From a phage: a stretch of DNA of 64,000 nucleotides. Position numbers and translations under genes: made by a program. Under the pieces are notes generated by a model. It saw nothing but the letters and a program-made list of their open reading frames with translations. It was not told the DNA's origin and made no database searches. Of the stretch, positions 1-37,941 are shown piece after piece; within the stretch, counting starts at the first letter, position 1, and each line of letters begins with the position of its first letter. The stretch lies in sequence record PZ445487.1; one strand, given 5' to 3'.

Positions 1-360
1 CATAGCGCCGAAGGAGCTAATCCAGCCGTCCAGATACAGAGACAACAACATCTTAAAGCTGTCATGGTTGCCTTGTGCCACCTTGATGATAAAGTTCGGA
101 CGCCAGTCATCGGGAACGGGGCGTCGCTTAAACTCATCAATGTTTCGCTTGGCACCCTCCCGCATCAGGCGAATGAACCCTTCAGCCCCGATGAAGCATA
201 TATCACCAGCCAGTTCAAGAACGTCCCGAGACTTCAACCCCTGAAAGATACTGTCAATGACCGCAGCGTCATGGGCTTCCTGTGTATCAAATCCACGCGG
301 TTTAAAGACCTTCTTATGCCCAAGATGAGTGTCACCAAGGTGCTTTACAATTCCCGCCAT
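1..360 (-). CDS. Calcineurin-like metallophosphoesterase, N-terminal 120 codons (gene runs off the window start); Mre11/SbcD-like motifs
   Basis: ATG at 360..358 preceded by GAGGA; open to position 1. Translation [15 protein letters not shown]...LAGDICFIG...VAQGNHDSF carries metallophosphatase motifs I-III (GDxHLG, GD, GNHD), as in Mre11/SbcD/T4 gp47-type nucleases. Not in ORF track because it has no stop in the window. Confidence 0.5.
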
Positions 361-701
361 TATGGTTTCCTCAGCCATTCTAAAATCGGTACGTTCACAA
401 ACCCTTTATGCCAACGATGCGGTTTGTGACCTCTATTATGTTCGAGCAAACACGTGTCTGGTGGGACACTGAAGTGGATGCCGTCGATGTCGTAGTAATG
501 TCCATCAATCAGAGTATACACATGACCTTCAATCTGGCTATAATGGATCTCTGCTTGAGGATACACATGCTTCAGAACCAGAGCAACCTGATAGCACTTT
601 CCGTTCTTCCCAACATACTCAACATCCACCTGTTGTGGGAAGACGTCTTTGATAAGATTTATCAATCTCGTGATGTCATTTACAACAACCGAACATTTCA
701 T
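360..701 (-). CDS. hypothetical protein (113 aa), His-rich
   Basis: ORF track 360..701; ATG at 701 abuts the stop of the upstream QueC-like gene; stop overlaps the start of the downstream phosphoesterase (TAATG). Confidence 0.5.
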
Positions 702-703
702 CT

Positions 704-1366
704 CTATGATAACTCATGGCGATGTCGAACACAGGCAGGGCAATCACAATTCTTTTTCAAAATTGGCAATTCACACCATGTCATTAAGTCATGTATTGGG
801 GACATGTGATGATAGAACCAAGATTTCTTGAGACTAATCAATGGATATAAAATTTCAATAGATCTTTCCCCGTCTCTGGTCATCATGTTGTATCCTTCAA
901 TAACTTTATTAAAGGCGGGTATCCAGTGTATTGCGTCATCGCCGTTAACATATGCCAAGATATACGTGGGTGGCAAGCCACTGCCTTTAAATTGCGTGTT
1001 TAATAACCATATCGGGGCTTGTGCTAAACAAGCGCGAAAACCACCGTTCGGGACGTTGATGCTACTGATAGGTTCTTGATGATGTGTCCAACGATACATG
1101 AGAAGTGGGGCATTTTTATTAATCCAGTTGTATATTTTATTCCTCGCCCAATTTTCGCGTTTAGATTTAAATTTATTATTTTCGAGGTGGCAATACACAG
1201 TATGAACTGAATATCCTTTCGATAGCAACCAAATCAACATGTATGTGCTATCCACCCCACCAGACCAGAACAACGTCACTTCTTGATTATTCTGCGGCAA
1301 TGGAGCATCCCCTTGAAGAACACGGTATACAAAATCACAATCAGATATTGAGACAACAATTTCCAT
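704..1366 (-). CDS. queC: PP-loop ATPase, QueC-like (7-cyano-7-deazaguanine synthase family)
   Basis: 220 aa; N-terminal LFWSGGVDSTYML resembles the QueC SGGxDS PP-loop, followed by VH.V....E as in E. coli QueC; C-terminal CDCPAC cysteine cluster resembles the QueC zinc site. Confidence 0.55.
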   Translation of the reverse strand: MEIVVSISDCDFVYRVLQGDAPLPQNNQEVTLFWSGGVDSTYMLIWLLSKGYSVHTVYCHLENNKFKSKRENWARNKIYNWINKNAPLLMYRWTHHQEPISSINVPNGGFRACLAQAPIWLLNTQFKGSGLPPTYILAYVNGDDAIHWIPAFNKVIEGYNMMTRDGERSIEILYPLISLKKSWFYHHMSPIHDLMTWCELPILKKNCDCPACVRHRHELS

Positions 1367-1662
1367 TAAAATATTCCTCTTAAAGAATCATTTATCCTGC
1401 GCAATTCGTTTTCCACTTTTATCTTCATATTTTTATCGTCGTTCACGAAAATCATTTTATCTAAATCTTCGCCATTAATCTTTGTATAAAAATAAATGTC
1501 ATGCTCAAAGAAAATCGTTTTTCCAACAGAACGCATGGCAAAGAACGTTGCGATAGTTCTTGGTAAAGGTTTGAATTTAATGGCATTGAAACGCAAAGCC
1601 TGATAGAGAGGTTTTAATGTTCCTAAGCGAATACAATGCTGGATAATTTCTTGCTCTTTCAT
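1366..1662 (-). CDS. hypothetical protein (98 aa)
   Basis: ORF track; same strand and tightly packed with neighbours; start overlaps upstream stop. Confidence 0.45.
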   Translation of the reverse strand: MKEQEIIQHCIRLGTLKPLYQALRFNAIKFKPLPRTIATFFAMRSVGKTIFFEHDIYFYTKINGEDLDKMIFVNDDKNMKIKVENELRRINDSLRGIF

Positions 1663-1718
1663 TTGTTGTGTGCCATAAAGATATGATGGTACAATGATAA
1701 TACATTATACAAATAGAA

Positions 1719-1740
1719 AAGCCCCTTTCGGGGCTTATTT
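1719..1740. terminator. stem-loop aagcccc-tttc-ggggctt followed by T-rich tract
   Basis: Perfect 7-bp GC-rich stem seen directly; overlaps stop of gene 1735..2025. Confidence 0.45.
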
Positions 1741-2025
1741 GTCTTCAGATTCGTACAAACGCCAATTGCCGATGCTAAACCATTCCCCTACATTATTTGA
1801 ATATCTGGTTGTTCGGACTCCTCCGACTTCATACGCCCATTTGAAGAATTTCCATTTGGACGATAAAGAAGGACATTCGCTTCCAGATTTCAAAGAACAC
1901 GCTGTGAGCCAACGTGTAATACTGAGAGCCTGAAAAATCGGATGGATAAATGAAGAATACAATATCCAAAGCGTTATGACAACAAAAACAATGGTCGTGA
2001 TCACCCCGACAATTTGAAAGAACAT
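1735..2025 (-). CDS. small membrane protein (96 aa)
   Basis: ATG at 2025 preceded by GGAGG at 7-nt spacing; N-terminal hydrophobic segment FFQIVGVITTIVFVVITLWIL. Confidence 0.5.
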   Translation of the reverse strand: MFFQIVGVITTIVFVVITLWILYSSFIHPIFQALSITRWLTACSLKSGSECPSLSSKWKFFKWAYEVGGVRTTRYSNNVGEWFSIGNWRLYESEDK

Positions 2026-2102
2026 TTAAGAACCTCCAAAATATTGAACACAGACTATGAAGAAAACTATGATTGTAAACAACCATGAAAACAAGGAAAG
2101 AT

Positions 2103-2735
2103 TCATCCTTCTACCTTCAGCCCCATCAGGTCTTCCATGGTTTTCTGAATGCGTAGCCAGTCAAGCGCCGCATCATAACGAGGATCATGATAGACCATGC
2201 CTTCCAGTTCCCACGCCTTGATACCAGCATATCGATCCTGCTGCCCAACACCCTTCAGCCAGCTTACGATGTCAAATGTGTGGTGATAGTCCCAAGGTTC
2301 GTTGGAATCTTGCTTACACGTCACCTCAATGATGTGCTGAGCCTTGCGTAGGTCAAACAGATTCCTATCACACCAGTCAACCGATCGCGGGTCGATCCCA
2401 AGGCGATGGCATCCCCTGCGAATTTCATCGGCCAATTTGAAAATAGAAATATCCTTGTCGGTCGGATATAGACTGATAGTTCGGGCGGCGTCGCACGGGT
2501 TGCGTTTACCTGTACCCAGCCACCATTCCACAGTGCCCTGGTCTTTCACACGGCCAAGTTCAATCTGTTCTTTGACATTCAGTTTGATAAATGTCGTGCG
2601 CTCTACAACAAGCTGCTGAAGAGTATAACGCTTGGTCAGGTCGGCGATAGTCTGTGCCCAAGACAACATGACAGCATCATCCCAACGACCGAGAGTTTCG
2701 CTATCAGCGACGGCCAAGAAATTAGATTTATACAT
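2103..2735 (-). CDS. 3'-5' exonuclease, DnaQ/DEDDh family (T4 DexA-like)
   Basis: 210 aa; Exo I-like motif AVADSETLG (DxE), WW motif (TVEWWLG), C-terminal YHDPRYDAALD (H-x4-D Exo III motif). Confidence 0.6.
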   Translation of the reverse strand: MYKSNFLAVADSETLGRWDDAVMLSWAQTIADLTKRYTLQQLVVERTTFIKLNVKEQIELGRVKDQGTVEWWLGTGKRNPCDAARTISLYPTDKDISIFKLADEIRRGCHRLGIDPRSVDWCDRNLFDLRKAQHIIEVTCKQDSNEPWDYHHTFDIVSWLKGVGQQDRYAGIKAWELEGMVYHDPRYDAALDWLRIQKTMEDLMGLKVEG

Positions 2736-3072
2736 CAGTTTCCCCTGCTTTCTCTAAAAGGAGTTTCAAAGGATATGTCCCACAAGCGGTGGCATACTCG
2801 ACTTTGAAATATGAATTATCGTTCATGGCGAAATTTCGATGTGGGAAATATTCCCCGTCATCCAACCCGCCTAATCCCCCGCCGACGCGATATTGTTTCA
2901 ACTCAACTTCGCCGCCATAACGGAGTTGGGCATATAGGCCGATAGGAGCGCGAACGTAATGCTCCAGCCATACCCAATTTCCGTCGTGTAAACGTGTAGG
3001 GATAAATGCAAAACGCACCTTGGGATGAAGAACGGCTTTGGCGAGCATCTCTTCTGTTATTTCACGCTTCAT
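2728..3072 (-). CDS. hypothetical protein (114 aa)
   Basis: ORF track; overlapping start/stop with neighbours in an operon-like arrangement. Confidence 0.45.
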   Translation of the reverse strand: MKREITEEMLAKAVLHPKVRFAFIPTRLHDGNWVWLEHYVRAPIGLYAQLRYGGEVELKQYRVGGGLGGLDDGEYFPHRNFAMNDNSYFKVEYATACGTYPLKLLLEKAGETDV

Positions 3073-3674
3073 CCAATACCTTCCTCTTCGATGATATCTT
3101 CTTCACTAGCGACGACAGAGATTCCGTAGTCCACCATCTGGGAAAGTTCTTGTAAATCTTGTTCAAACCCGTCACCCTGTCGGATATAAAAGACGGGTAC
3201 GACACGACGCCTGGTATCTTCGAAGATAGTCTCCGCGATTTTATTAATCTGACTCACTACATGAAACAGTTTCAAACCACCGATGCCACAGCCGATGGCG
3301 GGTAAACCAACATAGACTGTTTCGTCAGTTTTTGCCTCAATGATATCGTGAACTTGTTCAAACATAATCTGAACTGAACTGATAATGGAAGGCATGCGTG
3401 CGTTAGGACCAGGGTAGAACTGAGTATACAAATTGAATCCCCAGACACCAGTGTCATGATCAAACGCATAGGACATGTTCCCCAAACGTTGTTCCGGACC
3501 ACGTTCATCTAATTGGTCGGCTCGGTAAATTTCTGGGAAATCTAATCGAACATGGTTGGCGATACCTGCGCCCATCACAGACCAACAATTTGCTCCATGA
3601 GCGAAAGCATTGATGAGATTAAAACTCGTAGCGGCTTTCAGTAAATCGCCGTTTGTGATAACATATGTGGTCAT
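3069..3674 (-). CDS. macro-domain protein (ADP-ribose binding/hydrolase fold)
   Basis: Start moved to ATG 3674 (GGAG at 9 nt; ATGA overlap with upstream stop). Motifs NAFAHGANCWSVMGAGIA and LPAIGCGIGGL resemble the macro-domain signatures (NAAN...GGGV and PxIGTGxxG). Confidence 0.6.
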   Translation of the reverse strand: MTTYVITNGDLLKAATSFNLINAFAHGANCWSVMGAGIANHVRLDFPEIYRADQLDERGPEQRLGNMSYAFDHDTGVWGFNLYTQFYPGPNARMPSIISSVQIMFEQVHDIIEAKTDETVYVGLPAIGCGIGGLKLFHVVSQINKIAETIFEDTRRRVVPVFYIRQGDGFEQDLQELSQMVDYGISVVASEEDIIEEEGIG

Positions 3675-3907
3675 GCGTAACGTCTCCATTGTATAATTTC
3701 GTTGTTGACACAGCTAACCTGGATGATACACATATTCTGGCGATGGTCAGTGAGTGTCATAATAAAACTATCTGTCTGTGTCATAACGCAATTGACAGAT
3801 ATTCCTCGCATCATCAAACGAACACAGATTTCTTGATATAATCGTTTCATGTATCCTGAAACTGAAGCGGACTCATACACGCGTTCAAATTCATATAACT
3901 CGTTCAT
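3671..3907 (-). CDS. hypothetical protein (78 aa)
   Basis: ORF track; overlaps neighbours by 4 nt at both ends. Confidence 0.4.
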   Translation of the reverse strand: MNELYEFERVYESASVSGYMKRLYQEICVRLMMRGISVNCVMTQTDSFIMTLTDHRQNMCIIQVSCVNNEIIQWRRYA

Positions 3908-4128
3908 TTATTCAGACCATCAATAGCGTGTTCAGAAATATATTCAACAAATTGGTTATCAGCTGCCATCTTTAAAAGTTCAAATAATTCCGTTCCAACG
4001 GTACTCCCAAACATCCCTTCCAATACACCCTGAACATCTTCATCTATTTCTTCGATGACGAGTCCATACGATTTCAGGCGGCGTGAAATAGCACGGAACT
4101 GGGCAATATCACCAATTTCATTTGCCAT
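3904..4128 (-). CDS. hypothetical protein (74 aa)
   Basis: ORF track; ATGA-type overlap with downstream gene. Confidence 0.4.
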   Translation of the reverse strand: MANEIGDIAQFRAISRRLKSYGLVIEEIDEDVQGVLEGMFGSTVGTELFELLKMAADNQFVEYISEHAIDGLNK

Positions 4129-4177
4129 GTTATTTGTCTCATTATGGGGTTAGGCGGCAATTATACCGCCAATTTAT

Positions 4178-4591
4178 TCAATAGAGGTCTTCGGAAAAGA
4201 GTTTTTTGAAAGGAGTGTTCTTCAAACGGACCTGATTAGTTTGTCCGGCTTCACGGGCGACCACAGCGGCCTCTTCACGGGACATCCATTGCCCATAGTT
4301 ATCAATAAACCCTTGTTCACGAGTGTGGGTGGTTTCGATAATACCTGCTTCCTTCAATCGTTTGAGTTGCGTGTTCATCAATTTGTCGTGATGTCGGGCG
4401 CTTACAACGATCACATCACCATATTTGTTGGCAGCAGCCACAACACGCCGATCAAACTTGGTTGGGTCAGGTATATCACGAGCATACAAGGCGATGTGAG
4501 TGTCGTCCACGTCCCCTTTCACTTCAGAGTATAATTGACACCCATTAGGAGATCCAGTAGGCAAAGAACGAAAATATCCAAGTAATTTCAT
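4178..4591 (-). CDS. hypothetical protein (137 aa)
   Basis: ORF track; same strand as flanking genes; no motif recognised. Confidence 0.45.
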   Translation of the reverse strand: MKLLGYFRSLPTGSPNGCQLYSEVKGDVDDTHIALYARDIPDPTKFDRRVVAAANKYGDVIVVSARHHDKLMNTQLKRLKEAGIIETTHTREQGFIDNYGQWMSREEAAVVAREAGQTNQVRLKNTPFKKLFSEDLY

Positions 4592-4594
4592 AAT

Positions 4595-4906
4595 CTAATC
4601 TATCCATATTTCAGGTTCAGGAATATCGACCATCTCCACGGTTTGATTCTTTAATTCGTGGAAACAATCTCCAAGGAATTGTAATTTACCATCAGTCAAG
4701 AACAAATGACAACGACTCGCCGGATGAGAATGATTCACCAACAGACTAGGAGTGAAAGTCGGTGATTCGAGATCGTGATTCCATTGCCATATTGGGCCAG
4801 GCATTTGCCCTGAAATGCGATAAGGATGAAGCATATTACATCCAGGACAATGAAAATATATGGAACCACCCATTGATAATAATTTTGGAGTCAATAATTT
4901 TGACAT
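4595..4906 (-). CDS. hypothetical protein with CxxC zinc-ribbon-like motif (103 aa)
   Basis: Start moved to ATG 4906 (GGAGG at 7 nt); contains HCPGC...C...C. Confidence 0.45.
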   Translation of the reverse strand: MSKLLTPKLLSMGGSIYFHCPGCNMLHPYRISGQMPGPIWQWNHDLESPTFTPSLLVNHSHPASRCHLFLTDGKLQFLGDCFHELKNQTVEMVDIPEPEIWID

Positions 4907-4907
4907 A

Positions 4908-5186
4908 TCACGCCTCCACTTCTTCATCAGGATTGTATGGGTGTAATTCTCCAATTAACTTAGGGAATAATGCGAATCCAAATAAATTAAATGAACGCAT
5001 GGTGCCAACCATACCCACTTCATCCGATTCGGTTACATCAGAAAGAGCGCAAAGAGGTATCCATAAATCTTGTTGGCCTTCATGATTGACAAAAGCAACT
5101 TCCTCTTTAATAAAACGAGGGCATAAGATATCGAACAACCAATAGAAGAAAGTCAGCAATGAGAGACTGCGGAAATATACAAACAT
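4908..5186 (-). CDS. small membrane protein (92 aa)
   Basis: Start moved to ATG 5186; hydrophobic LSLLTFFYWLFDIL segment; stop adjacent to next start. Confidence 0.4.
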   Translation of the reverse strand: MFVYFRSLSLLTFFYWLFDILCPRFIKEEVAFVNHEGQQDLWIPLCALSDVTESDEVGMVGTMRSFNLFGFALFPKLIGELHPYNPDEEVEA

Positions 5187-5228
5187 GGTGAACCCCTTGC
5201 TTGTTTGGAGGGAATTCACCCTCCGGAT

Positions 5229-6560
5229 TTATAGGCCCAATGCCTTTTCAAGATCATCTAAATCTTCAGTATAAAGATCGATGTCTTGCTTATTATTTAA
5301 TTCTTCTCGTTGAACTTCTAAATTCTTTATCTGGTTCAACAAACGTTCACGGGCATCTAGTGTAATTGATGATAAAGACATCTTGAATAAATCATCGAGA
5401 TCGCCATCAAAATCAGGATAGTCTGTCTGGAATAACGCTTTCAGTTCCGTGAGGCTCCGGCGCATATCTGTAACGACAGCCCACCCAATGAATATGGCAC
5501 GATTGTTCAAACGGTGTATTTTGTCGGTCAATTCCTTGATAAGATACTGACGTCTATCTTCATAGCGACTCAGGCGATAATTGAAAAATGGAAGCAACAT
5601 ATCTTTCCAACCATCGTAACGGTGAATAACACCATCTTCATCCCAAGCTGTCCACACGGGCTTATTAGCTGAGTAGAGGCGGAACATTTGTTCAACCTGT
5701 TCGTCATTCAACTTAGACAATTCACCCCGCTTGAATACAACAGTGATATCCCAACCATCTTCGGTCGTATCGTTAGCATATTCAGTGAGTATGCCGGATT
5801 TGTACAACGGCAACAACACTTTGGTCTCATAGGTTTTAGAGAACCAACCAATAGGAACCTCGGTGATGTTCAGAGTGGTTGCATTGACGCGGGTGAACAA
5901 ACCACGACTGTATGCTCTTCCTTCCTCAGTATAGCCTGTCTCTCCTTTGAAACCATTCCAGTACGGTTTTAAGTCCTTCGGGTCTTCGCCACGGAGAAGT
6001 GCTCTCAGGGCACTGAGTACGGACTTAACGCAGTGACATGGGGTGTCGGTGGCATAACCCGAGCCGATACCATTGATACCATTCACGAGAAACATGGGCA
6101 GGATGGGTAAAAAGAATTTCGGCTCCAGTTTCTCTTCCCCAAGATAATTGTATTCCAATATCCCATCGTCCTCCTTTCGGAAGATTTTACGGATAACTTC
6201 AGACACTGCCACTGAAATATAACGAGCGGAAGACGCTTCGCGCCCCATGATTGAACCAAACTGTCCGTCGCGGTCAAAGTATGGGATGTTATTCGTACCT
6301 GGGAACCCCTGAGCCATGTTCACGATCGTACCGCTCATGTTCTCACCACCGGATTTGTAATTCGTGCGAGCGGCGGCGAACATGCCAAGGCGGTCAACAA
6401 TCTCCTCCTTGTTGTATTCAAGAGCAGCGAAGAGTATCTTGCGCTGGCTTGGCTTCAGGCTGTCAATCAGCTGAGGGATTTGACGGATGCTGTTGACCAC
6501 GGAAAACTCCTTGTGGTCAGTGTTGACAAAGTCCGTTACAGTAATGCTCTTGGCAACCAT
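5229..6560 (-). CDS. 52: DNA topoisomerase II medium subunit (T4 gp52-like, GyrA-type)
   Basis: 443 aa from ATG 6560 (GAGG 9 nt upstream), versus 442 aa for T4 gp52; motifs IDSLKPSQRKILFAAL, GQFGS...ARYI, FFLPILPMFLVNGINGIGSGYAT parallel T4 gp52. Confidence 0.85.
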   Translation of the reverse strand: MVAKSITVTDFVNTDHKEFSVVNSIRQIPQLIDSLKPSQRKILFAALEYNKEEIVDRLGMFAAARTNYKSGGENMSGTIVNMAQGFPGTNNIPYFDRDGQFGSIMGREASSARYISVAVSEVIRKIFRKEDDGILEYNYLGEEKLEPKFFLPILPMFLVNGINGIGSGYATDTPCHCVKSVLSALRALLRGEDPKDLKPYWNGFKGETGYTEEGRAYSRGLFTRVNATTLNITEVPIGWFSKTYETKVLLPLYKSGILTEYANDTTEDGWDITVVFKRGELSKLNDEQVEQMFRLYSANKPVWTAWDEDGVIHRYDGWKDMLLPFFNYRLSRYEDRRQYLIKELTDKIHRLNNRAIFIGWAVVTDMRRSLTELKALFQTDYPDFDGDLDDLFKMSLSSITLDARERLLNQIKNLEVQREELNNKQDIDLYTEDLDDLEKALGL

Positions 6561-6561
6561 C

Positions 6562-8475
6562 TTATTCATCCTCGGTTTCAAATAGGCAAACATCGCTAAA
6601 CCAGGTTTTGCGGTAATCGGCGGCCTCATCACCGAAGCCATTCTTCAGTGACTGCTTGTATCCATCGTCCAGCGTGACCGTCGTAGTATACGCATCCAGG
6701 TTGTTTAGAATACGCTTGAAGTCTTCAGTGCTGTTACCGCCAAGACCTTTCAGATATTTCTTCTTCGTGATCTTCTTGGCGTCAGGTGTCTTCAGGAACT
6801 CCTCATATTCGGCATTGTTCATGAATTCATGCATTATATTACCACACCACACGCGCATGTATGGGGTACGAAGGAGCTTCAGCCTACCCTGACGAACGTA
6901 TTCAGGCCAGAACGTACAATACAGAGTTATTAACAACCCACGGATGTGAATGCCGTCGTCATCCGCGTCTGTTGCCACGACGGTCTGTGGATAGCGACTG
7001 ATATCAAGCGGCTGGCCTGGCACAGCACCGCCGTGAATGGTGCATAAATTCTTGAATTCTTCGTTCGCCATCACTTTTGAGCGCGGGGCGTTCAAGCAGT
7101 TGATAAACTTACCACGAAGCGGGAACAAACCAATTTTCTTGGTATCACGAGCGTTCAGGATAGGGTTGGATGCGCTATCACCTTCTGTCAGTAGCAGCGA
7201 ACACCCACTGCGGTCGCCTCTGGCGGTCGCCGGATAATACTTCTCAATCTCACGATAATCCCGTTTGCTGATATCCTTCTTCGCCTTTTCAAATTCGGCA
7301 TCTTCTTGTTCATTGCGTAATGAAGCCAGTTCTTTACTCAGCCCTGCTGTCACGAACTCAAGCGCCTTACGAATCAGACGTTCGCTTGGCTTGTAGGTCG
7401 TGCCAAACTGGCTAACAGGAGTCGTCATGCGCTCCTTGGTCTGGCTGTCAAAGCGAGGGTTGTTGATGTCGGCGGCGATGAACAATGACATGTGGTTCTT
7501 GATCATCGCTGGCTTCAGTTCGGTCTTGAACTTCTTAACCAGCTGAGGGCGTATAGCCGCCACGATCTGGTCAGCAACATAATCAACGTGAGGTCCACCG
7601 ATGTGCGTGGCGATTGAGTTCACGTATGATGCATGCATGAACGCACCAGATGAGGGAGTGATAGCAACAGACCAATCATCCGTTTCATCAACAGCCGAGC
7701 CAGCGTAGAAGTAATCAACGAAATGACCAAATCGATCAATGCGGATTTGCTTGCCGTTGAGAACAACCTTCAGGCGCGGGTTGCATGCCGCCACTTCGAA
7801 TGCACGACGGTAAATCATGAGCAGGTTGTTCTGGTCAAGCCCCTTAACACCCAGGCGCGCATAATCAGGGATCCAGGCAATAGTGGTGCCGAACTCTTTC
7901 GGTGTATTGCCGATGACCGGATTGGACTTCTTGCTCATGTTGTCTTCAAACAGCTGAGTATAAGACTTCTTGCCGTCACTGGTAGCAACGCGGAACCACT
8001 TTGAGAACACGTTGACGAGCGAAGCCCCTTCACCGTTCTGGCCGCCGGACTTCTGGTTGTTGTACTCCTCGTCCTCATCGTTGAAGTTGCTGCCCGCATA
8101 GAGCGAGCCAAACAACATCTCAGGGAGCCACTCATTGGTGACGCCATGCTTGACCACAGGGATACCCCCGTTGTCAGAAACGATGATTTGACCGTTCATA
8201 GGGGAGACCGTGACGGTGATTTCCGTCAAGCCTTTACCCTCAGAGGTCTTGCTGTGGTCAACACAGTTGGTGATGATTTCATCAAACTGTTTGATCAGCG
8301 CAGGGGAGTACTCAAAGTTGTCACGGAAGATGACTTTGTCTTTGGTTGGGTCATACACCCACACCGTCCCCACAGACGAACGGATACTGCCCAGATGACG
8401 CTCTGGGCGAAGTAGGATATGCTCTATGTGAGTGAGCTTTTTGTATTTGCGTTCAATATCAATTTTGTTGGACAT
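6562..8475 (-). CDS. 39: DNA topoisomerase II large subunit (T4 gp39/gp60-like, GyrB-type ATPase)
   Basis: 637 aa; GHKL ATPase and TOPRIM-like content; immediately upstream of gp52 on the same strand. Confidence 0.85.
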   Translation of the reverse strand: MSNKIDIERKYKKLTHIEHILLRPERHLGSIRSSVGTVWVYDPTKDKVIFRDNFEYSPALIKQFDEIITNCVDHSKTSEGKGLTEITVTVSPMNGQIIVSDNGGIPVVKHGVTNEWLPEMLFGSLYAGSNFNDEDEEYNNQKSGGQNGEGASLVNVFSKWFRVATSDGKKSYTQLFEDNMSKKSNPVIGNTPKEFGTTIAWIPDYARLGVKGLDQNNLLMIYRRAFEVAACNPRLKVVLNGKQIRIDRFGHFVDYFYAGSAVDETDDWSVAITPSSGAFMHASYVNSIATHIGGPHVDYVADQIVAAIRPQLVKKFKTELKPAMIKNHMSLFIAADINNPRFDSQTKERMTTPVSQFGTTYKPSERLIRKALEFVTAGLSKELASLRNEQEDAEFEKAKKDISKRDYREIEKYYPATARGDRSGCSLLLTEGDSASNPILNARDTKKIGLFPLRGKFINCLNAPRSKVMANEEFKNLCTIHGGAVPGQPLDISRYPQTVVATDADDDGIHIRGLLITLYCTFWPEYVRQGRLKLLRTPYMRVWCGNIMHEFMNNAEYEEFLKTPDAKKITKKKYLKGLGGNSTEDFKRILNNLDAYTTTVTLDDGYKQSLKNGFGDEAADYRKTWFSDVCLFETEDE

Positions 8476-8524
8476 CGGCCTATCCCGTCAATGGTAAACA
8501 CACAAGATTATGTATGGGGTTGGC

Positions 8525-9103
8525 TTATAGACCAAATTTACCACGCCACTTTTCAACTTTGTGTTCTATGGCATGTTCTACTTTAACGATCGTGTTGATA
8601 TGGTTTTGATTATACCCACACGCCAATTTGGCAGTATTGCGTATCAGATTTGAAACCAGGTCCACCATATTATCTTCTGAACGTTGAGGTTGGTTCAGTA
8701 AACGAGTGATGCGGCCTTTGTAATGATTAACCATCGCAAGATATTTGTCTATAGTTTCAACACCACTGCAGAACCAATAATCCTCCAACGTATGTTGGCT
8801 GAGATCAGTTGTGTGATTGGCCGTAGCCAAAGCAAACACCATGGAGTCAAAGATTTCTTCTTTGGTCATAGACCCATGTTGTTGAACTTGTTGATAATCC
8901 ACAACATATAATAGATCCAGAGCCGAGATGATAACGTCCGCCACTTCACCGTTCAGGGGTTCGGATGCAGCGATTCCATAAAGCACATCTGATAGTTCAC
9001 AAGACTCTTCCACGAGTTTGCAATATACAAACACAGGAGAACGATTAGGATCGCGCTGGCTGAGTTCATATGATGTGTTGAAGATAATTTTTAGAAAATT
9101 CAT
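8525..9103 (-). CDS. MazG-like all-alpha NTP pyrophosphohydrolase (T4 gp56 dCTPase analogue?)
   Basis: 192 aa; KLVEESCELSDVL and EVADVIISALDLLY resemble the paired E-x-x-E / E-x-x-D helices of the MazG/HisE family. Confidence 0.45.
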   Translation of the reverse strand: MNFLKIIFNTSYELSQRDPNRSPVFVYCKLVEESCELSDVLYGIAASEPLNGEVADVIISALDLLYVVDYQQVQQHGSMTKEEIFDSMVFALATANHTTDLSQHTLEDYWFCSGVETIDKYLAMVNHYKGRITRLLNQPQRSEDNMVDLVSNLIRNTAKLACGYNQNHINTIVKVEHAIEHKVEKWRGKFGL

Positions 9104-9116
9104 TTCAAATATCCTT

Positions 9117-9599
9117 CTAGACGGAAGCGGTTAATATGCTGTATGATAAAATCCATAGAGTTTTGAAAACTGTATTTCCCTGATGCTCATATGCATGAAT
9201 AAGGGGAAGACGGCTGTGGGCCAATTGGAATCTCAACTTGGATGGCATTGTCAGCAATTTTTGACTCGTCGCTGCGATAATGTCTCGTTTAAATTTGGGA
9301 TCATCAGGGGACAATACAACGATGCGTGACTTGGCCAGGGTTTGTCCAAATTGCTTGGCGTCGTTCCCGTAAAGACTACGCAAGTCGTCGTGGCGATATT
9401 TTAGCCAATACCAGTAGCCTTCTATTGAGTTGAAATTACCATCAACAGTATCCATGGGATGGTATGCAAAATGGGAAAGGAATCTGCCTAGTTCTGTGCG
9501 ACTTCGACTGTATATGTTGTAATGGGTCTTACCTTCACTATCCGGCGTCATACGTTCTTTTGGAACATTGAGTAATGGGAGCATGATATAGGGTCTCAA
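9117..9599 (-). CDS. hypothetical protein (about 160 aa; start uncertain)
   Basis: ORF track; first codon of the listed ORF is TTG; internal ATGs at 9584 and 9551 lack clear SD. Confidence 0.45.
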   Translation of the reverse strand: MRPYIMLPLLNVPKERMTPDSEGKTHYNIYSRSRTELGRFLSHFAYHPMDTVDGNFNSIEGYWYWLKYRHDDLRSLYGNDAKQFGQTLAKSRIVVLSPDDPKFKRDIIAATSQKLLTMPSKLRFQLAHSRLPLIHAYEHQGNTVFKTLWILSYSILTASV

Positions 9600-9863
9600 A
9601 TCAAAATTGCTGTGTGTGTGTTAAATCAGATCTTTTTGTACGCTTTCAAAGCACTAATAACCGAGACGCCGCCAAATAGAACTAACAATATGAATCGTTC
9701 CATCCTGAAATCAGGAAGGGAAAGCAGTCCCACAAGGCTGTCTAAAGCAATCATGAACGTTACTCCAGTCAGCATGCCCAACTTAAAGGAGTTGGAACCT
9801 CTTTTGCAACGTAGCATAAATCACCTCCGATTCAAATGGGGAGTTCTCTCCCCACACAGATAT

Positions 9864-10373
9864 CTAGCCCAGAAACACTACTAAAGTCAAATTTGTGAGA
9901 CTGGTCCGAGCATCCTGCAACATTTCACGGGCAGCGGCTAAACGTTTTACATCATGTAGAGTGTCAGAGAACACGATTATGTTAGCCTTATCGATCCTGG
10001 TCCCCATGAAATGGGTGATTGTCGTCGTGCTCTCTTTCTTGTCGACATCAGGGATAAGTAATTCTTCGCCCGTCTGAGGGTTGCGGGAAGGATAGAAGAA
10101 TGCATCACGTTCACGAGAAGTATGGAAGACGCCAAACACATATGCGTCGTTTTCGACCTGAAACTTTTTAGAAAGTAGTTTCTTCAGAGCGGCTGTATGT
10201 CCGGTCTGGCGGAGCATTCTGTAGTAGAGCATGTTGCCGGAGCAAATAGGGTCTATCACTCCCCTAATTTGACGTTCCTTTTGTATCTCATACGCATCTG
10301 CCACAAGCTGCTGGATCATATCGACATGGGCATTCATGGAGATTTCTATTTTACGTTTGATCATAGATTGCAT
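9864..10373 (-). CDS. hypothetical protein (169 aa)
   Basis: ATG 10373 preceded by GAGGA at 8 nt. Confidence 0.5.
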   Translation of the reverse strand: MQSMIKRKIEISMNAHVDMIQQLVADAYEIQKERQIRGVIDPICSGNMLYYRMLRQTGHTAALKKLLSKKFQVENDAYVFGVFHTSRERDAFFYPSRNPQTGEELLIPDVDKKESTTTITHFMGTRIDKANIIVFSDTLHDVKRLAAAREMLQDARTSLTNLTLVVFLG

Positions 10374-10424
10374 TTGGTATATCCTCAGTTAGGTTCCGCT
10401 CATGGGGAACGGGTCCATTATACA

Positions 10425-10462
10425 CCCAATGCTGGAAATGAAAAAGAGGCCGAAGCCTCTTT
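10425..10462 (-). terminator. rho-independent terminator-like hairpin (aaagaggc-cgaa-gcctcttt) with T-rich tract on the minus strand
   Basis: 8-bp perfect stem directly at the stop of gene 10461..10682. Confidence 0.5.
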
Positions 10463-10682
10463 AATCGTCGTATTGGCCTGTCCTGAAATTCCATTTTCGC
10501 GCCTTGGATAAATCCAAATCTTTGAAAATGCTGCCAAAGATCTTTTTAAAATCAGACTCTTCTTCAAGATCTTTTGGTTTTTTGACAGGCTCCTTAACCA
10601 TACCGCCTTCGGGTTTCCCCACATCGGCGGTCGTGGTTGCCGGAGCAGAAGAGTCTTCAAGGAAATCCTGGAAGCTCTTCAT
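10461..10682 (-). CDS. hypothetical acidic/lysine-rich protein (73 aa)
   Basis: ORF track; ATG 10682 right after the stop of the Ig-like gene; followed by terminator hairpin. Confidence 0.4.
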   Translation of the reverse strand: MKSFQDFLEDSSAPATTTADVGKPEGGMVKEPVKKPKDLEEESDFKKIFGSIFKDLDLSKARKWNFRTGQYDD

Positions 10683-10685
10683 AAA

Positions 10686-11507
10686 TTACACCACAGCCAT
10701 TTCACAACGAGTAGACGTGACAGAATGGCCATCTGCATCAGAAACAACACACCAATATTCGCCTTCATTTGCGGCTTCAACTGCTGTGATAACCAGGTTA
10801 GCAGTGGCGGCGGTGGCATTAGTGCCAGCATCGATAACTGACCCCGCACCCCCAGGAGTATCAGAGAAATGCCACACATAAGTGTATGGAGTTGTACCGC
10901 CCGCAGCAACAACACTAAAGGTTCCGTCTTGTCCAGAAGTCACGTCTTTGGTGGCAGGTAAATCAGTCGACAGCGATAGAGCGCCTGCAACTGTAATAAC
11001 CGTAGAATCTGTGTGATTCCCTTCAACCGTGACACCATAAACCGTTACAGTTCCTGAAGCCAGCAATTTGAATTTACCACCACCGACATGTACAGCTTTC
11101 GTAATATCACCAGAATACCAATTAACGCCTTGATATGTGGCATTGGCAGGGGATACCGTCGCTAGCAATTCAACAAATTGTCCGATCTCTCCGCTGGCTG
11201 TAGCTGGAGTAATCACAAGTCCGGTGGTTAAAATAGCATTCGGATCGTGGATTTCATAAGATACTTGAAAGCCGATAGGCTTGGTGGGATCCACTTTGGT
11301 GACACCGTCCGCTTGTAAATTGCTCTTGGTGAGCAGAGCGTCAAGACCTTTACATTCGGTCAGGATCTCATCAGGATCTTGGTTGAGGCTGGTCTTTTGC
11401 CAACCCTTTGCAACACCCGTCACGACATGATTGCGTTCGGTTTCGGGTTTGTTGCGGACAACTTCCGGTGCGACTAATACTGTGATTGTTGGCATGGTTT
11501 CCTCCAC
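10686..11507 (-). CDS. Ig-like domain protein (Hoc-like surface or decoration protein?)
   Basis: 273 aa rich in T/S/G/V beta-strand pattern; C-terminal EGEYWCVVSDADGHSVTSTRCEMAV is a typical Ig-domain Y-x-C motif. Confidence 0.55.
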   Translation of the reverse strand: MEETMPTITVLVAPEVVRNKPETERNHVVTGVAKGWQKTSLNQDPDEILTECKGLDALLTKSNLQADGVTKVDPTKPIGFQVSYEIHDPNAILTTGLVITPATASGEIGQFVELLATVSPANATYQGVNWYSGDITKAVHVGGGKFKLLASGTVTVYGVTVEGNHTDSTVITVAGALSLSTDLPATKDVTSGQDGTFSVVAAGGTTPYTYVWHFSDTPGGAGSVIDAGTNATAATANLVITAVEAANEGEYWCVVSDADGHSVTSTRCEMAVV

Positions 11508-11866
11508 TCATCCAAATCGTTGTTCAGAGCCATCATCAGCTCATTATCTGGTTCGTATGAACCGGAACATAAATCATCTCGCCAAACTCCTAACGTCAAC
11601 AGCGCTGCTTTAAGACGAGGATGTTGGTTCTTATCCGTTTTCAACACCAACATTCGGCACACGGCTTCGGTTTCAAAGGTATTGAAAAGAATAATCAATT
11701 GATTGATAAGTACTCGAGGACTTTTCCCTGGCACAAATCTTTTCAATGATTGATTAATTAGCGAAATTCGCTGAATGTCTACCATCAAATCATCTCTTGA
11801 GACACCAGGGGTGATATAATGTCTTAGAGCGTACTCCATCAAATTGCTTTCGTCAACGATAGCCAT
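11474..11866 (-). CDS. hypothetical protein (130 aa)
   Basis: ORF track; same-strand packing. Confidence 0.45.
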   Translation of the reverse strand: MAIVDESNLMEYALRHYITPGVSRDDLMVDIQRISLINQSLKRFVPGKSPRVLINQLIILFNTFETEAVCRMLVLKTDKNQHPRLKAALLTLGVWRDDLCSGSYEPDNELMMALNNDLDEWRKPCQQSQY

Positions 11867-11898
11867 ATTGAATTATAATCAGCAGTTATACACTGGGA

Positions 11899-12312
11899 TT
11901 ATTTAATCTGCAGTTTTTCAGCCAATTGCGAGATTATTTCATTACGGTCAGTCGCGTCGATACCCAGGGGTTCCGCAAGTGTTTTAAGATCATTGATATC
12001 GAGCAAAAGAAGAACTTCAACTGTAATATCGGTTGATACCACAGTACCTGGTTTCATCGGCTTACCGAATTTATCTAACCCATAACGGCGCAAAGTTCCG
12101 GCAAGTCCGGTGAGTTCCTCTAGAAGCTCCTTAGAGCCGTCTTTATATTCACACACCCAACCGTAGTCACCAGCGTAGACAATACCGCCGTCGCCGCCCT
12201 GAGGCACGTTATCCACCACGCGTTGCAGATAACTGGGAAGTTTATTTTCTTCCTGTGCAGTGATTTCTTGGATGGTTTGGGTGTTTTCAATTTTCTTTTG
12301 TGTCTTCGCCAT
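11899..12312 (-). CDS. hypothetical protein (137 aa)
   Basis: Start moved to ATG 12312 (GGAG upstream); the longer ORF start would overlap the upstream gene. Confidence 0.5.
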   Translation of the reverse strand: MAKTQKKIENTQTIQEITAQEENKLPSYLQRVVDNVPQGGDGGIVYAGDYGWVCEYKDGSKELLEELTGLAGTLRRYGLDKFGKPMKPGTVVSTDITVEVLLLLDINDLKTLAEPLGIDATDRNEIISQLAEKLQIK

Positions 12313-12586
12313 GATCAGTTCTCCTATAGACTGTAATATATTTACCACAACAATTGCAGCAATAAACATGCATGGAATATCCGTCGTCGTTAAAGTCACA
12401 GCCGCCACAACGACAAAATAATTTCACGAACTGGTCGCCTATGACTTCTCTCGGAGGAAAATTCCTGAACGAGTATTCCTTGAGTTCTCCATCAAATTGG
12501 AATGAATCAACAAGGAACTTTGTTTTTCGGCGCAGTGATCCAAATGCCTGTTGCTCATACACGAAGTAAACATCTCTGGTTTCCAT
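12287..12586 (-). CDS. Cys-rich zinc-finger-like protein (99 aa)
   Basis: CRCGGCDF...CCNCCGKY cysteine clusters; ORF track. Confidence 0.45.
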   Translation of the reverse strand: METRDVYFVYEQQAFGSLRRKTKFLVDSFQFDGELKEYSFRNFPPREVIGDQFVKLFCRCGGCDFNDDGYSMHVYCCNCCGKYITVYRRTDHGEDTKEN

Positions 12587-12639
12587 ATCGACCTCAAAGA
12601 AAAGGAGGCCGAAGCCCCCTCTTTTATGTCAGTTCGCGG

Positions 12640-14223
12640 TTACTTGTATAGACCTTCAACATCAATGGATTTATGTTGGCGGTTGTATTCCGTGGTGTAA
12701 TCGTCTAATACCAGATATTCACAGCAGCGGATTTTACTGGAGCCATAATCATCAGTGATAGACACGATATCTTTCGGGTTCAGTTTGCAACGGACAACGC
12801 GTTGTCCCAGGCTACCAAAACATTGTTTCAGATAAGCCAGAGAACAAACGTGAAGACCGTAAGAGCACAGATCTTTGTTGTTATCGTTCACGAATGAGCG
12901 AGCCATCCGAACAATGGTGCCAGGAGCATTACTAACTTTTCCTGTGCGCTTGTCCATGTAGTTACCGCGAACGGATTTATACAGAATGATATCACCGTCT
13001 TCATGAATTTCGATATCCGAATATGCCATGAATTCATAGATTCGACCGGACTGAACCAGCGCGGCGCTCGGGTTTTGGAACATTTTGTCCAGGAAACGAC
13101 CCAAGCGTTCCAAGTTCGGATAATCGCCTTTTAATGCCAAAGCCAAAATGCGTTTGGCAACGGAAGTTCCGGTGATATCATAGCCACCCCAGCGAACACG
13201 ATTGTCTGAAAGGTCAACCATGCCTGTGGTGAATTGTTTGATGGCTTCACGCGGTTTCATCAGAGTGTACGCTGTTTTGACGTCACGATTTTTAATCGCT
13301 TCAACAATACGGTCATACGCCTGGTGGCTCGTTGTGATCGTTTCCGGTTTACCATCAACCACGATCACGATACTTTCCGGCAAAATCATGATCTGGTGTT
13401 CGTTCAGGAACACAGACAGATCTTTTTCATTAAATGAATTCTGAGTTTGCTTGTCGCCTGTTTCTCCAACAACTGCAACAGTCTTGACCACGAATAATAC
13501 GGATGACAATGCCAGACGAAGTGTACGGCCTAAAATTACATCAAAGTAACCCACGCGCCGACGGGCATCAAGGGAACCGCGCATCGGGTATGTTTCGCCG
13601 TCATGTTGTACACTGATTACCACGCCATCATTGACTTTGGTAACGCCATCAACCAGTGCTGTCGCCAATTCGGCCAACGGCGAAATATTTTCTTCATTGA
13701 AGCGGCTTGACCGAGTTTCTAACGGTTTCAGTTCTTCGCTTCTGAAAAGTTTGGCCTGAATAGCAGCAGAGCTATCGTAACGCATACAGATAAACACTGT
13801 TTGGTTTTCCAGGAAACGGCCAACATACCATTCTTCGCCTTCAGAATCGACAGACACCGAACCTTCCAGAACTTCATAGGTGTCGGGGATTTTCCCTTCT
13901 TCAGTCAATTCTTTAATTGGCGAAATCACGACCACGTTATTAGATTCTTTGATGATACGAACCATCAGGGCGCGGGCAATTGTTTTGGCACTGACGCCAT
14001 AAACTGATGCCAGAGAAGAATTGCTTTCACCTTTGCTGCTCTTGGTTTGTATTTCTTGAATCTGTTCAGTGGTCAGAGACTTAATCGAAGCTGGATCCAC
14101 TCCCAGTTCTTTATCCGACACGCGTTGTATCATTGAGCGCGGTACGCCCAATTCACTGGCTATTGAACTTTGACTTCTGTTCTCATTCAACAGCTTGAGA
14201 ATACGTTTTTCTATAGCATTCAT
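12640..14223 (-). CDS. rIIB: rIIB-like protein
   Basis: 527 aa; C-terminus (EDGDIILYKSVRGNY...GKVSNAPGTIVRMARSFVNDNN...SYGLHVCSLAYL...RVVRCKLNPKDIVSI) parallels the T4 rIIB C-terminal region; N-terminal HTH-like segment; directly downstream of rIIA. Confidence 0.8.
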   Translation of the reverse strand: MNAIEKRILKLLNENRSQSSIASELGVPRSMIQRVSDKELGVDPASIKSLTTEQIQEIQTKSSKGESNSSLASVYGVSAKTIARALMVRIIKESNNVVVISPIKELTEEGKIPDTYEVLEGSVSVDSEGEEWYVGRFLENQTVFICMRYDSSAAIQAKLFRSEELKPLETRSSRFNEENISPLAELATALVDGVTKVNDGVVISVQHDGETYPMRGSLDARRRVGYFDVILGRTLRLALSSVLFVVKTVAVVGETGDKQTQNSFNEKDLSVFLNEHQIMILPESIVIVVDGKPETITTSHQAYDRIVEAIKNRDVKTAYTLMKPREAIKQFTTGMVDLSDNRVRWGGYDITGTSVAKRILALALKGDYPNLERLGRFLDKMFQNPSAALVQSGRIYEFMAYSDIEIHEDGDIILYKSVRGNYMDKRTGKVSNAPGTIVRMARSFVNDNNKDLCSYGLHVCSLAYLKQCFGSLGQRVVRCKLNPKDIVSITDDYGSSKIRCCEYLVLDDYTTEYNRQHKSIDVEGLYK

Positions 14224-14255
14224 CTTGTAGTTCTCACTGTGGGGTAATGGGGCTA

Positions 14256-36932: not shown

Positions 36933-37008
36933 TGGCGACGACGGCAGGACTTGAACCTGCGACATACGATTTAACAGACCGCCGTTCTACCGACTGAACT
37001 ACATCGTC
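36933..37008 (-). tRNA. tRNA-Asn (anticodon GUU), encoded CCA
   Basis: Hand-folded: acceptor GACGATG/CGTCGTC, D-arm GTTC-AGTCGGTA-GAAC, anticodon arm GCGGT-CTGTTAA-ATCGT, T-arm GCAGG-TTCAAGT-CCTGC, discriminator G, CCA. Confidence 0.8.
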
Positions 37009-37420: not shown

Positions 37421-37495
37421 TGGTGACCCTGGCTGGACTTGAACCAGCGACCAATCCCTTATGAGGGGGCTGCTCTACCACTGAGCTACAGGACC
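37421..37495 (-). tRNA. tRNA-Met or tRNA-Ile2 (anticodon CAU), encoded CCA
   Basis: Hand-folded: acceptor GGTCCTG/CAGGGTC (two G.U), D-arm GCTC-AGTGGTA-GAGC, anticodon loop CTCATAA (one C.A mismatch in stem), T-arm GCTGG-TTCAAGT-CCAGC. Confidence 0.7.
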
Positions 37496-37941
37496 TTTTG
37501 TTTCTTCAAATTATCTAACACATGTGGATTGGATTTCAACATCTTCTTCATGTTGGCCTCCTTACTCAGCAATTGTAAATTCCACAATACGCAATTATAC
37601 TTATTTTCATCAACATGATCTATTTCAAACCCTTCTGGGACTAGACCATTAAATGCAACCCAGACAAACCAGTGTAGATATTTCCTGAAATATTTGCCCT
37701 TATATTCTACTTTGATTTGCAAATAACCAGTTCCATTGTCTACGCCCACCAAATATCTTTCAGGTAGTTTTTGTTCATATTCTCCAAACTGATTTTTACG
37801 GCGTATAGTCAGTTCTGGCTTTTTAATTTTTCCATAGTTGCTGACAAATACATGAATGCCAATTTTGTCTAAATACAACTCTTTCCAAATCTCTTCCATA
37901 ACAACTACCCACAGCAATATGAATTTGTTGTGTCCAATCAA
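37486..37941 (-). mobile_element. HNH homing endonuclease gene (free-standing, abutting tRNA-Met)
   Basis: EIDHVDENKYNCVLWNLQLLSKEANMKK is a classic HNH motif; AT-rich relative to surroundings; 3' end overlaps the 5' end of tRNA-Met; start ambiguous (ATG 37899 or alternative start 37941). Confidence 0.55.

Follow-up and report, generated by a model that had tools for sequence, protein, structure and literature searches.

A QueC-like gene of Escherichia phage CBA120 belongs to a mostly viral branch of the QueC superfamily and probably does not make a queuosine precursor

We analyzed a 64,000-nucleotide stretch of phage DNA (PZ445487.1; "the window"), in which an open reading frame (ORF) on the minus strand at 704..1366 encodes a 220-amino-acid protein, orf028 or CBA120_gp024 (hereafter gp024). 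Based on its reading frame and on profile and fold matches, we describe gp024 as a PP-loop ATP pyrophosphatase of the QueC superfamily, from a virus-restricted clade (PHROG 1550). Because the essential substrate residues of QueC have been lost in this phage branch, gp024 probably makes no queuosine precursor and feeds neither queuosine-modified tRNA nor 7-deazaguanine DNA. Our best reading assigns it, as an accessory enzyme, to the nucleotide and DNA metabolism programme of the phage. We lean towards an N-type (PP-loop) ATP pyrophosphatase that is stabilised by zinc, is catalytically competent, and has a rebuilt pocket; it would act on a non-canonical, nucleobase- or nucleotide-like substrate.

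The letters of the window match Escherichia phage CBA120 (Kuttervirus, Ackermannviridae; NC_016570.1 / JN593240.1) at 100% identity, and they correspond to the reverse complement of positions 110302..157304 of NC_016570.1, joined to 1..16997. In the CBA120 record, orf028 lies at 15632..16294 and is identical to the ORF in the window, which has an ATG start, 220 codons for amino acids, and a stop codon, all within 704..1366. The product is a "hypothetical protein" in GenBank and "QueC-like queuosine biosynthesis" in RefSeq; the RefSeq name derives from PHROG 1550 (match E = 2e-81). The gene is conserved in 199 phage records. CBA120 and its STML-13-1 orthologue differ synonymously at 74 codons and non-synonymously at 18, and the gene is under purifying selection. 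There is also a Shine-Dalgarno-like AGAGGA 9 nucleotides upstream of the ATG. Given the conservation, the codon differences, and this motif, the gene is real.

Searches with single sequences see the P-loop alone. The Pfam QueC model matches only amino acids 33-64 of gp024, at 23.5 bits (gathering cut-off 22), and the NCBIfam equivalog for QueC (TIGR00364) gives 17.8 bits (cut-off 150.3). Models for ThiI, MnmA, ArgG, and TilS score gp024 at levels similar to Pfam QueC, and a phmmer search of the PDB with the gp024 sequence found nothing below E = 0.1. Classification therefore required a profile of distant relatives. Using HMMER with a profile of close homologues, we found 1155 clusters (at 50% identity) with E ≤ 1e-3, including 478 with E ≤ 1e-10. 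The clustered relatives are mostly about 200 amino acids long and are matched over their full length. We then compared a profile of 77 distant relatives ("A3") to the PDB. Its full-length matches were QueC from B. subtilis (3BL5, E = 1.8e-11), Cap9 (the QueC-family enzyme of type IV CBASS, the cyclic oligonucleotide-based antiphage signaling system; 8.5e-9), and QueC 2PG3 (1.6e-8). All other PP-loop families were matched over the first 40 or so residues only, with E ≥ 5e-4. When A3 was aligned by hhalign to a small alignment of QueC and Cap9, the probability was 98.4% (E = 9e-15, 181 columns).

The predicted structure agrees with the profiles. The AlphaFold2 model of gp024 has a predicted local distance difference test score (pLDDT) of 88, and its best fold matches are Cap9 and QueC, with Cap9 as the single top match. 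Foldseek ranks 2 to 11 are TtuA and NcsA. The other PP-loop families (TilS, ThiI, MnmA, TtuA, ArgG, GMPS, and NadE) are defined by full-length similarity and by family-specific domains, neither of which we found for gp024. Since the full-length profile and hhalign matches are to QueC and Cap9 and the others are to the P-loop only, we conclude from sequence comparison that gp024 belongs to the QueC superfamily. An earlier note on this DNA, made from the letters alone, had called gp024 an orphan QueC-like PP-loop ATPase. At the level of the superfamily this is correct, as Cap9 and QueC, not another PP-loop family, lead the matches.

The SGGxDS loop and the C-terminal cluster of cysteines that the note had pointed to are both present (SGGVDS at amino acids 35-40; four cysteines within 198-212). 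The PP-loop, SGGVDST at amino acids 35-41 (1244..1264, minus strand), is the ATP/pyrophosphate-binding motif by motif and alignment, and its G37, D39, and S40 are invariant in the 77 distant relatives. The zinc-ribbon motif, TWC198-E199-x7-C207-x-C209-x2-C212-x2-H215 (722..775, minus strand), aligns with the zinc site of QueC and Cap9. We counted its spacing (C198-x8-C207-x1-C209-x2-C212) as a match to the canonical C-x8-C-x2-C-x2-C, but one spacing does deviate in Ackermannviridae; the wider clade has CGxCxxC. Even when relatives are only about 25-40% identical, they keep E71, Y139, D143, K181, the residues of the PP-loop, and the cysteine ribbon invariant or nearly so. The clade also has an invariant set of its own: N63-N64, E71, Q116, Y139, D143, F174-P175, K181, and C198-E199. 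Outside of the zinc ribbon, we found no conserved catalytic or Fe-S cysteines among the relatives of gp024 (C59 is conserved in close relatives only).

Most of what defines a canonical QueC is missing. Libby et al. (2026, PMC13329287) give the signature as SGGxDS, YxQxHxxE, VPxRN, YPDC, K165, and C-x8-CxxCxxC, and report that Y35A, R99A, Y131A, and Y189A each abolish queuosine formation by E. coli QueC. As judged from the alignments, none of these four residues is kept in gp024. Y35 is replaced by L61 (Ile in the wider clade), in the segment L61-E-N63-N64-K-F-K67-S-K-R70-E71, where the His is not conserved; the part from N63 to E71 (N63-N64-x2-K67-x2-R70-E71; 1154..1180, minus strand), at the start of helix 2, occupies the place of YxQxHxxE. 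R99, the Arg of VPxRN, falls in a gap by hhalign or on the invariant Q116 by HMMER. R111 is near the VPxRN position, and it is conserved only within Ackermannviridae. After strand beta-4, a loop with a family-invariant Y and D, Y139-V-N-G-D143-D144 (935..952, minus strand), replaces the substrate loop with SGYPDC of QueC. This loop (YVNGDDA) is six residues shorter than in QueC, so Y131, where QueC needs an aromatic residue, is deleted and just an Asp is kept. Finally, Y189, after the first zinc-binding Cys, is replaced by E199; this Glu is nearly invariant in the clade, as in Cap9.

In other words, compared to canonical QueC (PF06508 cluster 1; TIGR00364; 3BL5 and 2PG3), gp024 lacks YxQxHxxE, VPxRN, YPDC, and the Tyr after the Cys, and its zinc ribbon has "CE" instead of "CY". 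According to HMMER, hhalign, and a motif scan, it retains the PP-loop, the zinc ribbon, the Lys (K181), the Glu (E71), and an Asn (N63) instead of the Gln. As a control for our patterns, we examined Gat-QueC from phage 9g. There, VPARN and "CY" are present and both YxQxHxxE and YPDC are missing, so this control is only partly informative.

Nor did we find a pathway around gp024. The earlier note recognized no queD, queE, folE, or dpdA in the window, and this absence extends to the entire 157-kb genome. The RefSeq annotation of CBA120 (all 210 features) names no QueD, QueE, FolE, Tgt, or DpdA, although its vocabulary is the one under which these genes are named in phage 9g. A tblastn search of all 157,304 bp of CBA120 with DpdA, FolE, QueD, and QueE from phage 9g gave nothing better than E = 0.25 (for DpdA1 of 9g, E ≥ 4.3; DpdA2-4 were not searched individually). 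We also found no Que or DpdA homologues in 80 related viral loci. Whereas canonical QueC forms a cellular clade with linkage to queD and queE, gp024 is in a viral clade with no such linkage.

The note had also drawn attention to a phage tRNA-Asn(GUU) whose G34 might be modified to queuosine. ARAGORN does identify tRNA-Asn(GTT) at 36933..37008 on the minus strand. However, a homologue of this tRNA is found in 46 Klebsiella phage records, against 7 records with the gp024 gene, and many Klebsiella Ackermannviridae have the tRNA but not the gene, so the tRNA is independent of gp024 and we reject a link between them. Given this distribution, the loss of most of the QueC signature, and the low TIGR00364 score, the implied supply of preQ0 to queuosine on tRNA-Asn is not supported.

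The other implied destination, deazaguanine in DNA, fares no better: DpdA is the signature of all known deazaguanine-DNA phages (Hutinet et al.) and was found in this genome neither by annotation nor by tblastn with the phage 9g protein, and the DNA of Ackermannviridae carries a modification of thymidine, 5-(2-aminoethoxy)methyl-2'-deoxyuridine (5-NeOmdU). The 5-NeOmdU pathway has been reconstituted in vitro from gp67, gp160, gp226, gp243, and gp247 of phage ViI, with no PP-loop protein among them, and Limestonevirus lacks the gp024 gene, so we also reject a role for gp024 in the hypermodification of thymidine.

"QueC singletons" in Salmonella phage SFP10 and Escherichia phage ECML-4, both closely related to CBA120, were put aside by Hutinet et al. 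(2019), who judged that they probably differ from QueC in function and likely form a separate N-type ATP pyrophosphatase subfamily. In CBA120, gp024 is the orthologue of these two proteins (more than 90% identity). The singletons of the 2019 paper also include proteins from Mycobacterium phage Muddy and Bacillus phage SP-15, and the ATPase of Muddy is a structural relative of gp024. Our conclusion agrees with theirs, which came with no analysis. We found no later paper that characterizes these singletons, and the supplement of the 2026 survey of the QueC family does not mention phage sequences. The existence of the orphan had thus been published before; our additions are the size of the clade, its restriction to viruses, its context of replication and deoxynucleotide metabolism, its dispensability in Ackermannviridae, and the comparison at the level of residues. 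Overall, the earlier interpretation is right about the ancestry of gp024 and its orphan status and is probably wrong about its function.

The Ackermannviridae that carry the gene are Kuttervirus, Agtrevirus-like phages, Taipeivirus, Nezavisimistyvirus, Miltonvirus, and Vibrio members, and it is always within a variable early block between topoisomerase II / DexA and dCMP deaminase. In CBA120, this block is about 5 kb with about 19 small genes (roughly 1..5200 of the window; 11.8-18.2 kb of the record). It contains DexA, a Tk.4-like gene, orf027, the QueC-like gene, a YunG-like gene, and a metallophosphatase, and it is a hypervariable accessory region. In Dickeya phage LIMEstone1 (Limestonevirus; L100, 13123-14184), the whole block is missing and three small ORFs lie between topoisomerase II and dCMP deaminase. 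Most Klebsiella Ackermannviridae also lack the gene (it is present in 7 of about 45 records). Because it is missing from LIMEstone1 and from most of the Klebsiella members, the gp024 gene is accessory.

Outside of this family, confirmed relatives of gp024 are on 120 viral contigs. Two scans of 185,579 species genomes with short peptide patterns turned up only 9 loci, mostly on contigs of metagenome-assembled genomes; as these patterns are short, "virus-restricted" should be understood as strongly enriched in viruses and not as proven to be exclusive to them. The neighbors of the hits in bacterial genomes (such as a WD40 protein, a kinase with an extracytoplasmic function (ECF) sigma factor, and insertion sequence elements) are uninformative. 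Structural relatives in BFVD include proteins of Noxifer, RSF1, Vibrio phage YC, Motura, and Muddy.

We clustered the neighborhoods of 80 viral loci (flanks of ±6 kb). In the dominant uncultivated lineage, the gene order is SNF2 helicase, a small gene that we call s120, the QueC-like gene, a family-B DNA polymerase, a gene with no assigned role, and NUDIX. In other lineages, the neighbors include RecA, a gp32-like protein, FEN, DnaB, PolA, class II ribonucleotide reductase, a GyrB-like topoisomerase, dNMP kinase, NT5C deoxynucleotidase, a HAD hydrolase, and PARP/WGR. The nearest relative from outside Ackermannviridae (P0021, 40% identity; Logan contigs L101 184-2147 and L102 2918-5465) is in the order Mom-like gene (PF25680), a 140-amino-acid ORF, the QueC-like gene, Dam methyltransferase, and glutaredoxin, with NrdD downstream. 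This locus may be a DNA-modification islet. On moderate evidence, the recurring context of the clade is DNA replication and deoxynucleotide metabolism.

Some relatives of gp024 differ in length, among them proteins of certain jumbo and Vibrio phages. Pseudomonas phage Noxifer gp27 (L089, 4986-5966) and Vibrio phage GR28A gp30 (L090, 4950-5915) have C-terminal extensions of about 130 amino acids, and other relatives reach 300-435 amino acids. No Pfam domain was found in the C-terminal extensions of the longer relatives (these two and eight others), so they offer no fusion clue. The homologue from Serratia phage vB_SmaA_3M (H84 / L060; 187 amino acids in UniProt) aligns only from residue 62 onward, at 29.5% identity. 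It may have lost the PP-loop and would then possibly be a decayed copy. Single-linkage clustering had suggested a second paralogue beside the metallophosphatase of Serratia phage 2050H1, but this was an artefact (BLASTP E = 1.2), and with it we gave up the notion that the gene stays next to the metallophosphatase in both gene orders.

The chemistry that we propose for gp024 is modelled on its homologues QueC and Cap9. Mg-ATP would bind at SGGVDST. The enzyme would then adenylate a carboxylate or carbonyl oxygen of a planar, nucleobase- or nucleotide-like substrate, with release of pyrophosphate, and an amine (ammonia or a larger acceptor) would displace AMP to give an amide or amidine. The four-cysteine ribbon would be structural.

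Several considerations weigh against this proposal of a non-canonical substrate. Our case for the substrate and the catalysis is one of homology, and the geometry of the pocket is read from alignments. Because a single lineage contributes many of the loci and genes of this kind are widespread in phages, the genomic context is only moderately informative. Also, HMMER places D143 of gp024 on D117 of Cap9, which hydrogen-bonds deazaguanine, and puts R111 one residue from R86 of Cap9. This ambiguity in the alignment of the two substrate loops means that a deazaguanine or guanine-like substrate is possible in the Ackermannviridae branch.

Cap9 (PDB 9NTO chain B) is among the closest known systems. 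It shares with gp024 a minimal QueC-like fold, a "CE...CxxCxxC" ribbon, and PF-x4-K. gp024 might be a nucleobase-protein ligase of the Cap9/QatC type, which would adenylate 7-carboxy-7-deazaguanine (CDG) from the host and join it to a protein amine (typically the N-terminus), or it might be a counter-defence enzyme with the same chemistry that consumes CDG and starves QatABCD or type IV CBASS. This would be in line with the top structural match, the common start of the zinc ribbon, the shared P(L/F)x4K element, the compact size, and the location of the CBA120 gene in a variable accessory block, and the PADLOC model for Cap9-type QueC matches 75 of the 77 relatives (best E = 1.6e-17). On the deazaguanine contacts of Cap9 (Y115, D117, and R86) the alignments differ: HMMER sets D143 on D117 and R111 beside R86, and hhalign deletes the Tyr and the Arg. 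However, the Cap9-type Tyr (of YxDC) and Arg (of RN), which stack on deazaguanine, are not conserved across the clade. The Cap9 motifs F-x-Q, R-N, and H-x4-Y-x-D-C correspond in gp024 to L-x-N-N, Q116, and Y-x3-D-D, and gp024 has an extra N-terminal helix of 27 amino acids. Cap9 has CD-NTase, Cap10, and Cap11 as neighbors, and gp024 has none of these: no CD-NTase with an MGGS tail, no Cap10 (TGT-like), and no Qat genes are in the annotation of CBA120, and it has no known acceptor protein. QatC (of QatABCD) is matched only weakly. It has in common with gp024 a QueC-family core, a remodelled active site, and a retained PP-loop. However, QatC is about 400 amino acids, extended at both termini, with a ribbon of the form C-x19-CGxC and with qatA, qatB, and qatD as neighbors, whereas gp024 has 220 amino acids and no Qat neighbors. 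The PADLOC model for QatC matches 10 of the 77 relatives, and the A3 profile matches QatC in the PDB at E = 0.44.

One lead for a ligase comes from s120, which encodes about 120 amino acids and is coupled to the QueC-like gene by a 4-nucleotide overlap, about 370 nucleotides directly upstream of the match at about 6001 (L027, L040, L041, L047, and L053-L088); the pair sits between the SNF2 helicase and the 1230-amino-acid polymerase. The s120 family (mean pairwise identity 39%) has a conserved N-terminus, MG(S)xYxW.NP..D, with MG in 16 of 25 members and MA in 6 of 25 (G is the second residue in about 5.6% of background ORFs). Similar acceptor motifs, MGGS and MGTS, are found in CdnD and QatB, where they are modified, or proposed to be, by Cap9 and QatC. 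We offer the resemblance to these acceptor tails as a hypothesis for that lineage only, not as evidence about gp024. In CBA120 the coupled gene, orf027, starts with MKEQ instead of MG, and we did not find a conserved partner: by hmmsearch and BLAST, the small upstream ORFs of the different lineages (orf027, c42, s120, c46, and others) showed no homology to each other. The depletion of CDG is speculative. We consider a ligase or counter-defence role for gp024 unlikely, but it is the alternative that we take most seriously. Slightly less likely again is the more general idea that phages encode their own enzyme of the Cap9/QatC type, either to put a nucleobase on the N-terminus of a phage protein in the replication module or to intercept CDG and so disarm QatABCD or type IV CBASS. 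If this were true, gp024 of CBA120 would be a cultivable and genetically tractable member of that clade.

We find it quite improbable that gp024 is a genuine preQ0 synthase, which like canonical QueC would turn CDG into preQ0 with 2 ATP and NH3, and that it uses host CDG to supply queuosine for GUN tRNAs (including the phage's tRNA-Asn) or deazaguanine for DNA. Its membership in the QueC superfamily with the PP-loop and zinc ribbon, its PHROG and RefSeq name of "QueC-like", the presence of tRNA-Asn(GUU) in the genome, and the retention of E71, K181, and the Asp after beta-4 all fit this idea. Yet none of the four essential residues of E. coli QueC is kept, the equivalog score is far under its cut-off, we found no queD, queE, folE, or dpdA in the genome by annotation or tblastn and no tgt by annotation, and the host already has its own QueC. 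The presence of a DpdA in all known deazaguanine-DNA phages, the synthesis of 5-NeOmdU in vitro by five other proteins, the distribution of tRNA-Asn, and the exclusion of these singletons from the 2019 survey of phage deazaguanines point the same way. Another enzyme for modifying RNA, similar to TilS, ThiI, MnmA, or TtuA and acting on phage or host tRNAs (for instance to evade anticodon nucleases), is very improbable. The Foldseek ranks of TtuA and NcsA, the weak Pfam matches to ThiI and tRNA_Me_trans, and the four tRNAs of the CBA120 phage, one of them CAU, could be cited for it. However, these matches are limited to the shared HUP/P-loop core, the 220-amino-acid gp024 has no THUMP, PUA, or TilS C-terminal RNA-binding domain and no conserved catalytic or Fe-S cysteine beyond the ribbon, and the presence of the gene is not linked to tRNA genes. 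Least credible is a catalytically dead structural protein or decoy, which might bind a partner protein of host QueC-family enzymes. The loss of the QueC substrate motifs would be compatible with this, but the PP-loop, the acidic residues after beta-4, K181, and the zinc ribbon are invariant over more than 1000 clusters, as expected of an active ATP pyrophosphatase.

The genes around gp024 in CBA120 form a compact string on the minus strand. Upstream, orf027 (1366..1662; 98 amino acids, PHROG 9302, no function assigned) has a stop codon that overlaps the start of orf028 (ATGA), so the two are probably translationally coupled. Downstream, orf031 (360..701; 113 amino acids, Phage YunG-like protein, PF24591) starts 2 nucleotides past the stop of orf028. 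It is followed by orf033, annotated as a putative Ser/Thr phosphatase or metallophosphatase, whose 5' part is in the window (1..360, cut by the start of the window) and which overlaps the stop of orf031 by 1 nucleotide. Despite its annotation, we found no Pfam match for orf033. Between orf025 and orf027, on the minus strand at 1719..1736, the sequence has a terminator-like hairpin, AAGCCCCGAAAGGGGCTT, followed by a T-run. The hairpin is strong and bidirectional, with T-runs on both strands, and orf025 is a predicted membrane protein. The hairpin probably marks the upstream boundary of a unit of orf027, orf028, orf031, and orf033. The full string downstream of the hairpin is orf027, orf028, orf031, orf033, orf034 (DUF7618), and orf035, with overlaps or gaps of 1-4 nucleotides, and none of the neighbors of gp024 in this string points to a substrate.

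We also note two features of the sequence record. At 16997/16998, the window passes over the point where the linear GenBank record was arbitrarily opened, with rIIA beginning at record position 1; as the window crosses the ends of the record, the source sequence was treated as circular or circularly permuted. And in RefSeq, the last 10 nucleotides of the coding sequence for a putative HNH homing endonuclease (orf221, 37486..37899, minus strand) overlap the first 10 nucleotides of tRNA-Met CAT (37421..37495, minus strand).

The product name "QueC-like queuosine biosynthesis" is on hundreds of phage genomes in RefSeq, and by our evidence it describes ancestry, not function. The name invites wrong inferences about queuosine and deazaguanine DNA in Ackermannviridae, a family that is widely used in biocontrol and phage therapy. 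The gp024 gene defines a large branch, confined almost entirely to viruses, of a superfamily that, according to recent work, immune systems have repurposed on two occasions to conjugate proteins with nucleobases. Because CBA120 grows on E. coli, it would be a practical system for finding the substrate.

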